From positions 1,054,001 through 1,118,000 of the forward strand of contig OX597839.1 in NCBI GenBank assembly GCA_951406725.2: a stretch of 64,000 nt of DNA. The letters are read 5' to 3'. This DNA is from Octopus vulgaris. Taxonomy: Eukaryota. The notes under the pieces were generated by a model. It made no database searches, was not told where the DNA came from, and saw nothing but the letters and a program-made list of their open reading frames with translations. Numbering within the stretch: position 1 is the stretch's first letter; each line of letters begins with the position of its first letter. Shown here one piece after another: positions 2,697 to 18,365 of this stretch. Position numbers and translations under genes: made by a program.

Positions 2697-2810
2697 TTTG
2701 TGGGAGAAACCGGCATTGTTGAATCTGTGTATACTTCAGGCGATATAAAAGTGAATTATAAAAACCCTCGTAACAAAAAGTTGCGCCTTAATCCAGCAGC
2801 TCTGGAAAAG
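2697..2810 (+). CDS. MIB2: MIB2-like gene A exon: second half of Mib (SH3-like) repeat 1
   Basis: tttcag acceptor, gttagt donor, phase 0/0; FVGETGIVESVYTSGDIKVNYKNPRNKKLRLNPAALEK matches the Mib repeat pattern G.TG.V....GD..V......NP.AL.K. Confidence 0.85.
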
Positions 2811-3152
2811 GTTAGTATGTCAGCCTATTCAGACTCATTCCATTGATTTCGCTTCCGTTATCATTTTTCATTTCCGTGTGACTTAGACGTTTGCTCTTGA
2901 TTATACAAGCCAGCGTCAACGAATATTACGTGGATAAATTTGATTTCAAAGGCTTACTTTGACAACAGACTCATACCAACAAATATTCTTCTTTGCTAAG
3001 TTCAACAGTTTAACAATAAGGTTAAACATCTGTGACAAATAATTCTTCTTTTCTGTCTCTCTTTTCTCTCTCTCTCTCTCTCTCTCTCTCTCTCTCTCTG
3101 TCTTCCACCGTCTTTATCTTCCTCATGTTCCATTCAAATTTCTTTGATATAG

Positions 3153-3257
3153 ATTAGCCAGTGGAGCGTTAACGATACAGTTAAGATACTTAGTGATGTC
3201 GAGAAAGTTAAAACTTATCAGGAAGATCATGGTGGATGGAATTCAGATATGATATCG
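3153..3257 (+). CDS. MIB2: MIB2-like gene A exon: first half of Mib repeat 2
   Basis: AG...GTGAGT, phase 0/0; ISQWSVNDTVKILSDVEKVKTYQEDHGGWNSDMIS carries the Q..HGGW...M motif. Confidence 0.88.
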
Positions 3258-4122
3258 GTGAGTGAATTTCTTATGCTGTGCTGTCCCAAATTTATCCAGG
3301 CCCATCAAACATAATACAAATTGTCCCACAGTCTGTATGCCCCCATCTACAATGAATATTCTCAGAAGAAATCAACCATTAAACTAAGCGAGTAATTGAA
3401 ATGGATAGAGAATGTCTAAACAATGAGGTCTCAAATCCGATTTTTTATGTATTATAAAAAATGTAAGCAATGATACATACCAACTAATATAAAATTTAAA
3501 TAAAGTTATTATTAAAGAAATAATATAATACTCACAGATATGTGTGTGTGTGATAGTGTATGCCTGATTGTGTATAAGTGTGCATGAGCGCGCATGTGTA
3601 AGTGTACAACATGGAAAAATATCTTCATATAAAATATTGTGCAATATAAATACTTTTATAAAAAATTATCTTTCCGACAATTAGACAATCTCCATATGTG
3701 AGAGGGAAAGAATAATTCTCAAGAGTTGGCAAGGAAATGCATAGGCTTACTGTTGATAGATAAGAGGATAGTAATGGTCATATGTTTCTAGTTCAATTTC
3801 CGTCGTCGGCACGCCACTTGGTTAGATAATAAACATGTATAAAACAAGGATACGACAAGAGTAATATTTCAATGTAGCCAGTGGCATTTATAACATGTAT
3901 AAATGCAACCTATCTATCTATCTATCTATCTATCTATCTATCTATCTATCTACATATATACATATACATATACGTACATACATACATACATACATACATA
4001 CATACATACATACATACATACATACATACATATATATATATATATATATATATATATATATATATATATATATATATATATATATATATATATATATATA
4101 TATATATATATATATATATATA

Positions 4123-4508
4123 TGGATGGAAGCACTCCATCGGTTACGACGACGAGGGTTCCGGTTGATCTTATCAACAGAACAGCCTGCTCGTGAAATT
4201 AACGTGTAAGTGGCTGAGCACTCCACAGACACGTGTACCCTTAACGTAGTTCTCGGGGATATTCAGCGTGACACAGAGAGTGACAAGGCCGGCCCTTTGA
4301 AATGCAGGTACAACAGAAACAGGAAGTAAGAGTGAGAGAAAGTTGTGGTGAAAGAGTACAGCAGGGATCACCACCATCCCTGCCGGAGCATCGTGGAGCT
4401 TTAGGTGTTTTCGCTCAATAAACACCCACAACGCCCGGTCTGTGAATCGAAACCGCGATCCTACGAACACGAGTCCGCTGCCCTAGCCACTGGGCCATTA
4501 GGCCTCCA
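4123..4508 (-). mobile_element. tRNA-derived SINE (Ceph-SINE-like)
   Basis: Pol III A/B boxes TGGCCCAGTGG and GGTTTCGATTC on the minus strand; partial + copy at about 25873-26130. Confidence 0.75.
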
Positions 4509-4699
4509 CGAATATATACATATATATATACACACATAATATATATATATGTGTGTGTGTGTGTGTGTGTATACTGTTGTAAAACAGAAAAAGACCGAGG
4601 GGACGGGCTACATTAGATCAAGTGTTGTGCTCAGATTAAATAATGCACTCAGTTGCTCCTCGCGGTCAGGAGCGCGATAGCGATACTGCGCAGAATGGC

Positions 4700-14860: not shown

Positions 14861-15063
14861 CGTAATGCACACATTATATATATATGTGTATATATATATG
14901 TGTGTGTGTGTGTGTGTGTGCACGCATTATATATACAAATGTATACAAATGAGATATATATCTGTATAAATTAACTTAGAGATAAAACCACTAATAGGCA
15001 AATCAAACAGTGAAAAACCAAAAACCAAAACATAAAAAAAGAAAATATAACATAGAAAATATA

Positions 15064-16069
15064 TCTATATATATAAAACTGTAGTTGTGTGAGTGTCTGT
15101 CCCCTTCGATTTAGATTCCTAACTACTCCCACATTTTGCGGTGCAGTTTAACCAAATTCGGGTATCTTATAGTCGTGATTCATATCGAGCCCGTCTGGGT
15201 ATTAGCGCGCGTCTACGATAAGTCTACGATTTTAAAAATAATTTAACATCATTTTTTATTCCATTTTAATGCATATTTTTTCGTGAGTCGATGGCGGCGG
15301 AGTTGGCGTCCATGGTCACACCTGCACCTGTGTTGCTTCTCCCCTTCTTCCCTCCCTCCTGAAGCTGTGGGGAAGGGAGTGTAAGGAAATCAACGTCGTA
15401 ATGCGTTGTGAAGGAGACCAGCGTTCTTTTAGAACAACGACTTCATGGTTTGAAGTCGCCAAAACAGAAATCGCTAAAAAAGCTGAAACAGATCCACAAA
15501 AACGGCAATTATCGCCACACAGGGCAGGTTTCCTGTGCAAACAATTTGCACAACCGAATGTTTTAGTTGTTGCACAAATCTTTATATATAAAAGTAAGGT
15601 TGTGTGTCTGTCTCCTACGATTTAGATTCCTAACTACTCCCACATTTTGCGGTGCAGTGTAACCAAAAACTTATAGTCGTGATTCATATCGAACCCTTCT
15701 GGGTATTAGCGCGCGTCTACGATGAGTCTACGATTTAAAAAAAAAAAAACCATAATTTTTTATTCCATTTTAATGCATTTTTCGCTATTATATAAGGGAA
15801 GTAACTCTCTAAAAATGTCTACCATGAGTCAACGATTAAAAAAAAATTACCATCATATTTTATTCCATTTTAATACATTTTTCGCTATTATATAAGGGAA
15901 GTAACTCTCTAAAAATGTCTACGATGAGTCAACGATTAAAAAAAAATTACTATCATTTTTGATTCCATTTTTAGTGCATTTTTTGCTATTTCTTTTGCTA
16001 TAACTTACTAAAAATGCTTACATAGTTATTTCCCTTACAAACCCGAGCAACGCCGGGCGATACTGCTAG
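15064..16069 (+). mobile_element. Non-autonomous Helitron
   Basis: A|TC 5' end; 3' hairpin cccgagcaacgccggg plus CTAG|T; duplicated 5' module near 15579; about 100-bp internal tandem repeats. Confidence 0.8.
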
Positions 16070-16999
16070 TAAAATATAAAATTGAAAACTTTAAATTATT
16101 TAAATTGAAAATAAAATTTATTAAATTATATTTATAATTTGTTTAAAAATATATATAACTATGAAAAAGTATGAAAAAGTTTAATATACATAAATACAGA
16201 TATATACACTTTGTATATATACATTATATATACATATTTATATATAGAACACACACACACATACATTATATATACATATTTATATATAGAACACACACAC
16301 ACACACATACATTATATATACATATTTATATATAGAACACACACACACACACACACACATATATAAATGAACGCAAGAATATCTGATTCATAATATTTGT
16401 TCTCATGCTCGTGTGTTGTTTGTTGGTGACAGACATATACTTAAAAGAACGCCGCCGAAGTGATAGAAAGGTAGGAAACAGAGTCAGTGAAAAAGAAAGG
16501 AAATAGCGATAGTGACAGATACTTTAAATAACGGTAGTGCATTCTGAAAGTTATGAAGAGGAGTAAGAGAGGGAAAGGAGGAAATAGGGTGAGTGAGGAA
16601 GATGGCCCCTAGCAACCACACCTTTTAAGATAGGGATTTTTAAGGTAGCCCAGGTGCATCGTCACCTCATTCTACATGTCCCTGTAAATTTTGGAGCGAA
16701 TCGGACGGGATGTAGTGGCATTGAAAGCGATCCAAGCGGTAAAAACGCATTTCAGTTTTATATATAGAGATATGTGTGTGTGTGTGTGTGTGTGTGTGTG
16801 TGTGTGTGTGTGTGTGTATGGGGAGGGTTTCCGCGCGTTTTGGTATAGGAAAGTGGGTTGGTAAAGGAATAAATGATTATCTTGTGAAATTTATTGGCTC
16901 ACGCCTCTTTCTGCTATAAGAAACAGTGGACTGATATTTGAGACTTTTGATAACACCATATAGCTTCGATGAAGCTTCATATATGAAGAAGTGTTTATT

Positions 17000-18030
17000 T
17001 GAGAAAAGATTTACATTTGAATTTGAATATATATATACAGTGAAAAGCATTACCAGTAGGAAAATCTTCGCAAATGTATAGAAAAAAAGTATATGTATAT
17101 TGACTTCTACACCAGGTTATTAATCTTTTGATATGGTGAGAAGAGTGATTTTTTTATCGATTCAAGGGGGCTCTAATCTATAAAATGAAGAAAATGAACG
17201 TTGATACAAATTGGATTTTTATGTAAAAAGGAGTCTAAATGAAACTGGAAGGGGGTTAAAATTTACAGAAGGGGGTAACTTGAGGTGAGGAATTGATTGG
17301 GAGACGTTTTGGGGCGCTACAATGGTTGCTTTGCTGTGAAAACGGGGATTTTATTGATTTGGGGGGACACTTGGGGGTCTAGATTGGACACATTTTGCAC
17401 GATTTCAATCAAATTTTCAACATGGTAAAGTGAAAGCAGATTTGTAATTTAAGCGCGGAAAATGGGTTCGAAATTTTGAAAATTAAGGCAAGATTTTTGA
17501 AATTGAAAAAACTTTTCTCATTTTTACGTACTTTTGCATTTTATTTTTTATTGTTTACAGTTTTCATTTTTTTTCTGAAAGAAATTTACTGCTGCATGTA
17601 GCCTGTGTTTAGAGCTTTCATTTGCATGGTCCATCATCGAAAAATTGCCAAAATAAGTACTAAATTTAACAAAGAAATCCCTTTTTTCCTTATTTTTAAT
17701 CGCTTAAATAGTGGCACGTACAAAGAAGAAGTGTGCTTTCCGTTGTCACTACCTGATATTTATGATTGATCTTTCAAAATATTTGCTTTCTCAACTTACT
17801 CAAGATCTTTTGTTTTTTTTATAAATGGGAGATAGATAGATAGAGAAAGATAGAGAGTAAGAGAAAGCAAGGGAGAGTCCGAGAGACAGAAAGAGTAAGA
17901 GAGTGGGAAAGTGAGAGAGAAAGGAGAGAGACACAAAGAGGGAGAATGCGGTGATAAGAAACAGAAAGGAAGCAACAGAAAGCAACAACCACACCCTCAC
18001 CCGCGCGTAGAGCGGGTTACATTAAGCTAG
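17000..18030 (+). mobile_element. Non-autonomous Helitron, 3' portion
   Basis: cccgcgcgtagagcggg hairpin plus CTAG|T at 18027-18031; left boundary approximate. Confidence 0.6.
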
Positions 18031-18170
18031 TTAATTATCAAAGGGGTAAGTAGTCAATGCATAAAATAGAATGTATCATATTAGAAACTGTTGGCCTCAT
18101 TTGATAAATTTGTTGTTATATTTTTTCGCATTGACCACATTTTATCCTTATATAATTATTTTGTTTGTAG

Positions 18171-18365
18171 ATATTAGGAGAAAAAGCCGAAGTAAAGCTG
18201 GTGTTACCGAACGATGATTTACTTGTGTTGATGCCTGGAAGTATGTGGCGCCTCAATCCTAAATGTTGTGAAAATGTCAGCGACAGCGATGAAAGTGAAA
18301 CTTCCAGCGACAGCGATGATTGGGAAAATTCCTCCTACTGCGATGTTAGTGATTATGATACCTAG
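18171..18365 (+). CDS. MIB2: MIB2-like gene A last coding exon: second half of Mib repeat 3, acidic tail, stop
   Basis: ttgtttgtag acceptor, phase 0; ILGEKAEVKLVLPNDDLLVLMPGSMWRLNPKCCENVSDSDESETSSDSDDWENSSYCDVSDYDT then TAG (18363-18365) overlapping a GTAAGT donor. Confidence 0.85.
   Translation: MLGEKAEVKLVLPNDDLLVLMPGSMWRLNPKCCENVSDSDESETSSDSDDWENSSYCDVSDYDT

Follow-up and report, generated by a model that had tools for sequence, protein, structure and literature searches.

The stretch of Octopus vulgaris DNA analyzed here (G000:C26:1054001-1118000, 64,000 nucleotides, hereafter the window) carries a gene, which we call B, that is an internally deleted, MIB2-derived paralog with three Mib repeats and an acidic tail and no ligase parts. 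Six coding exons of B lie in the window, each with an AG acceptor and a GT donor (Table 1). Their phases are 0/0, 0/0, 0/1, 1/0, 0/0 and 0, and splicing them yields 247 codons with the sole stop at the very end, which confirms the exon ends, the phases and the single terminal stop of a frame of about 247 amino acids described in an earlier note on this DNA. When the exons were searched singly, exons 1, 2, 3 and 5 matched Pfam SH3_15 (E values of 9e-9 to 1.4e-3), and no match was obtained for exons 4 and 6. The 5' exons had been expected outside the window, where a start exon (E0) was indeed found; E0 and the six exons together give 286 codons and a predicted 286-amino-acid protein. The repeats, earlier counted as at least three, number exactly three, the first half of repeat 1 being encoded by E0.

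A public model, P0001 (O. vulgaris hypothetical protein, 277 amino acids), is built on the exons of B. A Pfam search of P0001, suggested in the earlier note, returned three SH3_15 stretches (E = 4.7e-38) and nothing else significant; as that note had claimed, no ankyrin or RING was found, either in P0001 or downstream on B's strand. The annotated first exon of P0001 (C26:1043701-1043790) was rejected, as the contig covering exon 1 (see below) joins E0 instead, and the N terminus of P0001 is therefore probably wrong. The fold model is that of P0001 and thus lacks the first half of repeat 1. In this model, repeats 2 and 3 reach block predicted local distance difference test (pLDDT) scores of ∼74 to 93, and the linker and tail stay below 50; the best structural match of the repeats is MIB1 REP (PDB 4TSE, 4XI6). 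The model, the conservation of the repeat core and tblastn searches indicate that B has kept the binding module and lost the catalytic one.

TABLE 1 Exons of gene B and remnants downstream of them (window positions unless stated otherwise)
Feature	Position	Strand	Content	Evidence or remark
Start exon E0	G000:C26:1052833-1052949 (outside window, ∼1.1 kb upstream)		ATG and first half of repeat 1	In phase with exon 1
Exon 1	2697..2810	+	Second half of Mib repeat 1	Splice sites, SH3_15, E0-exon 1 junction in run X2 contig
Exon 2	3153..3257	+	First half of Mib repeat 2	Splice sites, SH3_15; exon 1-exon 2 joint in X2 contig skips 342 nucleotides, GT-AG
Exon 3	5648..5789	+	Second half of repeat 2 and start of acidic linker	Splice sites, SH3_15, X2 loose end
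Exon 4	7813..7901	+	Linker; low confidence in model, likely disordered	Splice sites, model
Exon 5	11181..11279	+	First half of Mib repeat 3	Splice sites, SH3_15, 11-nucleotide contig end
Exon 6	18171..18364 (18365 in the 247-codon frame)	+	Second half of repeat 3 and Ser/Asp tail	
Exon 7 (pre-ankyrin) remnant	20544..20665	+	Left deletion breakpoint	No donor, weak acceptor; apparently skipped; same break in C
Retained piece	20678..21707	+	Matches intron between ankyrin exons 9 and 10 of A, g2 and g7	Deletion on each side
Terminal exon	22929..23129	+	Dead last (RING2) exon, used as 3' untranslated region	13- and 14-nucleotide deletions
Orphan inverted copy of g1 3' end	28981..32276	-	Last ankyrin and RING exons	Stop and frameshift

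Loss of ligase parts in a cluster of MIB2 derivatives

B is one of about eight MIB2 derivatives that lack the MZM and that, together with fragments, form a tandem cluster, which we mapped by tblastn in 658 kb (0.70-1.36 Mb) and two smaller regions. In member g8, the counterpart of P0005 of O. sinensis and P0004 of O. bimaculoides, three repeats are combined with ankyrins and two RINGs. Paralog A (939-989 kb) also has three repeats and ankyrins, with a single RING exon, g2 (860-926 kb) and g7 (1184-1244 kb) have two repeats each, and paralog C (G000:C26:1153600-1173000) shares both the architecture of B and its break in exon 7. Skipping of exon 1 in C would preserve the frame. The third repeat, which the earlier note had taken as an extra special to B, is thus also found in two full-length neighbors and in other Octopus species; by this comparison, both the third repeat and the loss of the MZM are inherited and not inventions of B.

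The exon layout of B matches that of canonical MIB2 at C26:2.51-2.57 Mb. A genome search with PF06701 gave matches on C26 only at canonical MIB2 (2.54-2.57 Mb), with C13 72.6 Mb among the other places matched, and tblastn with three MZM queries found no MZM near B, the canonical MIB2 locus being the only match in the DNA examined; neither search thus returned the upstream MIB-HERC2/ZZ exons whose presence had been raised earlier. On the plus strand between exon 6 and paralog C, tblastn detected no ankyrin array, just the broken remnant of exon 7. An intact terminal coiled-coil RING was not found in B, in which the corresponding exon carries its two deletions and sits after the stop. Compared with its neighbors, B lacks two segments: one begins in the middle of exon 7 and reaches into the exon 9-10 intron, and the other extends from that intron to the one preceding the last exon. 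Its ankyrins and RING1 thus disappeared through internal deletions common to neighbor C. The piece retained between these deletions is rich in repeats, and its assignment to intron 9-10 is therefore likely rather than certain. Splicing of B to the RING exons of the orphan g1 copy was ruled out, since that copy is damaged and, lying on the opposite strand, cannot complete the gene.

The 13- and 14-nucleotide deletions in the last RING exon are common to g2, A, B, C and g7, and the exon is intact in g1, g8 and canonical MIB2. Judging from this distribution, the terminal RING was lost earlier than B, in the parent lineage, which was therefore probably already noncatalytic. Ubiquitination by B itself is excluded by the architecture predicted from its sequence. 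The tblastn results, the deletions and the cluster context thus bear out the earlier description of B as a lineage-specific, catalytically dead Mind bomb paralog reduced to the substrate-binding module.

We also observed that A, g2 and g7 resemble annotated MIB2-like ligases with a dead terminal, probably catalytic, RING exon; by sequence, they are likely pseudo-ligases. Paralogs A and g7 and a copy at 1664 kb begin with what we take to be a myristoylation-like motif (C26:989220, 1244189 and 1664150), hinting at membrane targeting in place of the MZM. Segmental duplications of 85-99% identity are dense between B and C (window positions 36000-64000 and flanks). Transposase-like open reading frames (DUF4371 / ZMYM1-like) lie at window positions 41659-43576 on the plus strand, and the public model P0003 fuses the first of them to the exons of C, probably an annotation error. 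At window positions 33300-36500, a CAC-rich low-complexity array of ∼3 kb with long Thr-, His- or Gly-rich frames is probably a satellite.

Splicing and probable transcripts of B

Run data were used as contigs, and the RNA status of every run was guessed; contigs were examined from four runs at exon 6 and from four at exons 1 and 2 (6 distinct runs of the 24 listed). One contig of run X2 joins E0, exon 1 and exon 2 and continues into an exon-3-like loose end with 2 differences. It matches B at 0 mismatches in exon 1, a stretch in which A differs from B at 13 of 114 positions, and with 3 differences in exon 2. A second X2 contig matches positions 18210-18364 at 0 mismatches and is spliced from donor 18364 onto the exon at 22929; an 11-nucleotide loose end before exon 6 in the X2 exon 6 contig matches the 3' end of exon 5. 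Junction evidence in the contigs therefore covers E0-exon 1-exon 2, exon 5-exon 6 and exon 6-terminal exon, with junctions 3-4 and 4-5 outside it. We conclude that B is probably transcribed; its splicing has support, though thin, from the contigs of X2, a single run presumed to be RNA.

Exon 6 of B is 1 nucleotide longer than its counterpart in A, and the resulting TA at the donor gives a stop whether the transcript remains unspliced or is spliced onward. In the 18364-to-22929 splice, TA is completed to TAA at the last junction. The stop that the earlier note placed in exon 6 was thus confirmed, but the gene does not end there: it continues into a noncoding exon, and this is the dead RING2 exon rather than the intact ankyrin and RING exons that would have pointed to a misassembly. 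A stop at the last exon junction escapes junction-dependent nonsense-mediated decay, and B mRNA would be expected to do so as well. AATAAA/ATTAAA hexamers occur from 23065 onward, the end of the terminal exon given in Table 1 being provisional.

At exon 6, runs X1 and X6 contained C-type read-through sequence. Run X13, which is probably DNA and has another organism label, contained the B-type stop region (18236-18429, 1 mismatch) together with the C-type form. Run X15 gave no contig at exons 1 and 2 and carries no weight. In X1, we further observed spliced variants that skip exon 1 and lack an exact match to A, B or C (window positions 3154-3259 and 18173-18296), which suggests further alleles or paralogs missing from this assembly.

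Selection on the Mib repeats

The introns of A, B and C diverge by 2.84-2.88%. The ratio of nonsynonymous to synonymous substitution rates (dN/dS, or omega) was 2.47 between A and B (259 codons, p = 0.03; 2.86 for exons 2-6 alone, p = 0.08), 3.27 between A and C (p = 0.003) and 3.09 between B and C (p = 0.011), and a codon model with kappa on a grid rejected omega = 1 (likelihood ratio test, 18.4 and 15.9). For the individual branches, expectations were derived from 9973 three-way intron sites, with 4 three-state columns set aside. In exons 2-6, the B branch carries 12 nonsynonymous changes and 1 synonymous change versus 5.5 nonsynonymous changes expected (p = 0.015), the A branch carries 18 and 1 versus 7.5 expected (p = 0.001), and the C branch carries 42 and 3 versus 7.0 expected (p = 2e-18). 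For the repeats of g7 and g2, omega was 2.49 (p = 0.16). The earlier note had regarded a dN/dS near 1 as telling against a functional gene; among A, B and C the value is ∼3, neither near nor below 1, which is a poor fit with binding of a conserved Notch-ligand tail.

A repeat core was defined from 380 non-octopus repeats. Variable positions in repeats 2 and 3 fall in the core at 13 of 60 sites versus 33 of 72 outside it (p = 0.006), and the core contains none of the 5 B-specific changes (p = 0.063) and 2 of the 12 specific to A. Despite at least 12 replacements, no stop or frameshift is present in the 259 compared codons of B. An unprocessed pseudogene would be marked by disabling mutations and an omega near 1; we found an open frame, an omega of ∼2.5-3 and avoidance of the core. 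CpG hypermutation was rejected as a cause, as 12 of 81 variable columns lie in CpG context and the changes are distributed over codon positions as 30/36/15. Conversion from older paralogs was likewise rejected as the main cause: most polarized changes are new (5 of 8 in B, with the outgroup showing the majority state), although in C, 10 of 30 sites agree with one or more outgroups.

Discussion

The reading that we favor, with about even confidence, is that B acts on its own as a noncatalytic binder or decoy, its ligands being fast-changing and possibly derived from pathogens, and belongs to an arms-race family. According to PMC11887331, REP binds the C-box of Notch ligands, the MZM carries most of the activity, and fly Mib1 lacking the MZM is dominant negative in a REP-dependent manner; by analogy, a repeat-only protein could plausibly sequester partners. 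According to PMC12330714, human MIB2 is bound by a viral protein, which inhibits the induction of interferon by MIB2. B would share the binding partners of the full-length paralogs or of MIB2 but leave them unubiquitinated, or it would act as a sink for an antagonist directed at these proteins, and immune conflict would drive the diversification of the cluster. The rate of diversification suggests changing partners, of the kind found in conflicts between host and pathogen.

Several observations weigh against such a role. With just 1 synonymous change on the B branch, the branch test leans on the introns, and changes in C show no avoidance of the core (10 of 23 lie within it). The expected contrast between fast repeats and conserved ankyrins was not found in A, g7 and g2, whose ankyrin exons have an omega of 1.4-2.5 (significant in 1 of 3 pairs); rapid change is thus family-wide and does not single out B. 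At greater depth, the comparison of B with g8 indicates purifying selection on the repeats (omega 0.48). The truncated 3' block differs between B and C by 1.85%, versus 2.87% in the 5' introns (p = 6e-5); one of the two may thus have received this younger tail later, and some B replacements may predate the truncation. The B-type spliced exon 6 was seen in one of three RNA-like runs compared at that exon, an inverted duplication interrupts exon 1 of C, and the N-terminal motif of A and g7 that we presume to be myristoylation-like has been lost from B.

B could instead be a young, still-transcribed by-product of birth and death in an unstable cluster, now decaying, whose selection signal dates from when its 5' half was part of a full-length gene or stems from conversion; we hold this quite possible, though at less than even confidence. 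Segmental duplicates of 90-97% identity and gene fragments abound in the region, and the younger tail common to B and C, the altered length of exon 6 and the loss of the presumed N-terminal motif would all fit decay. A length-matched search (2 matches among 209 candidates, a weak test) returned no repeat-only octopus counterpart, and the low divergence left little time for disabling mutations. Nevertheless, the frame of B stayed open while its replacements accumulated, these replacements avoid the core and are mostly new, and B has kept and splices its promoter side, start exon and native 3' end. An assembly artifact (a misjoin, or two haplotypes placed in tandem) behind the truncation or the B/C pair appears very unlikely. 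The region is highly repetitive, B and C lie in tandem at 97-98% identity, and runs differ in whether type B or type C is present; yet an independent run's contig splices 18364 to 22929 as the assembly predicts, X13 contains both forms, and even as an allele of C, B would remain truncated.

We also consider it improbable, though somewhat less so, that B is a dominant-negative Notch regulator sequestering Delta/Serrate C-boxes from MIB1/MIB2. The binding of REP to the ligand C-box and the REP-dependent Notch defects that MZM-less Mib1 causes in flies would allow this, but the MZM, to which most of the activity is assigned (PMC11887331), is lacking in B, and an omega near 3 would not be expected for binding of a conserved host tail. 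According to PMC10925295, in MIB1 only the terminal ccRING3, homologous to the second RING of MIB2, transfers ubiquitin and drives dimerization; since B lacks this domain, poisoning of dimers is unlikely.

The Mib repeats of B are homologous to MIB1 REP, and its exon layout is that of MIB2, but B differs from MIB1/MIB2 in having no MIB-HERC2/ZZ, ankyrins or RING, in having three repeats instead of two and in diversifying where they are conserved. The engineered Drosophila Mib1-deltaMZM likewise combines REP with absence of the MZM and, according to PMC11887331, is dominant negative in flies; unlike the natural and fast-evolving B, it retains ankyrins and RINGs and binds conserved ligands. The octopus proteins g8, P0004 and P0005 (3xREP-ANK-RING-RING) share with B the three repeats, exon structure, linker and lack of the MZM, but in g8 the ankyrins and both RINGs, the terminal coiled-coil one among them, are kept. 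By sequence comparison, the three-repeat, ligase-less architecture is not unique: among 16 SH3_15 representatives, which were chosen by hand out of 150 because they had multiple matches, at least three repeats are present in 14, 13 of these without an ankyrin match, and none of the 16 has a RING match at E 1e-8. Proteins of the Branchiostoma P0014 and Lamellibrachia P0031 type thus resemble B in having at least three Mib repeats without ankyrin or RING; such multirepeat proteins are ∼30-40% identical, independent origins are likely, and some may be fragments. Paired receptors and decoys, such as Siglec-5/14, can be homogenized by gene conversion. The near-identical binding modules, differing C termini and mosaic ancestry of such pairs recall the family of B, which derives from a cytosolic E3 whereas they are receptors, so that the likeness is one of analogy only. 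In a structure atlas, all matches listed by a feature search lay below 0.9. Another reuse of Mind bomb modules was observed there: an atlas cluster that is commonest in molluscs joins MIB-HERC2, Mib repeats, ankyrins and a PARP domain.

For the cluster as a whole, we put forward, tentatively and with some doubt, that octopus MIB2 gave rise to a polymorphic cytosolic recognition family of full ligases (g8 and g1), pseudo-ligases (A, g2 and g7) and repeat-only decoys (B and C), which would swap positively selected Mib-repeat modules against intracellular pathogens. Among the matches listed by full-text searches of open-licence PMC and bioRxiv, we found no description of this cluster. The known role of Mind bomb proteins is that of conserved ligases in development, and the cluster, with its stepwise loss of the MZM, the catalytic RING and the ankyrins and with binding surfaces evolving at ∼3 times the neutral rate, suggests a role driven by conflict. 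The significance of our findings lies mostly in this positively selected cluster and less in B alone, and the cluster result stands even if B is merely a decaying copy. If the proposal is true, the cluster would provide a concrete candidate recognition family for cephalopod immunology, and Mib repeats would be modules that can be retargeted.

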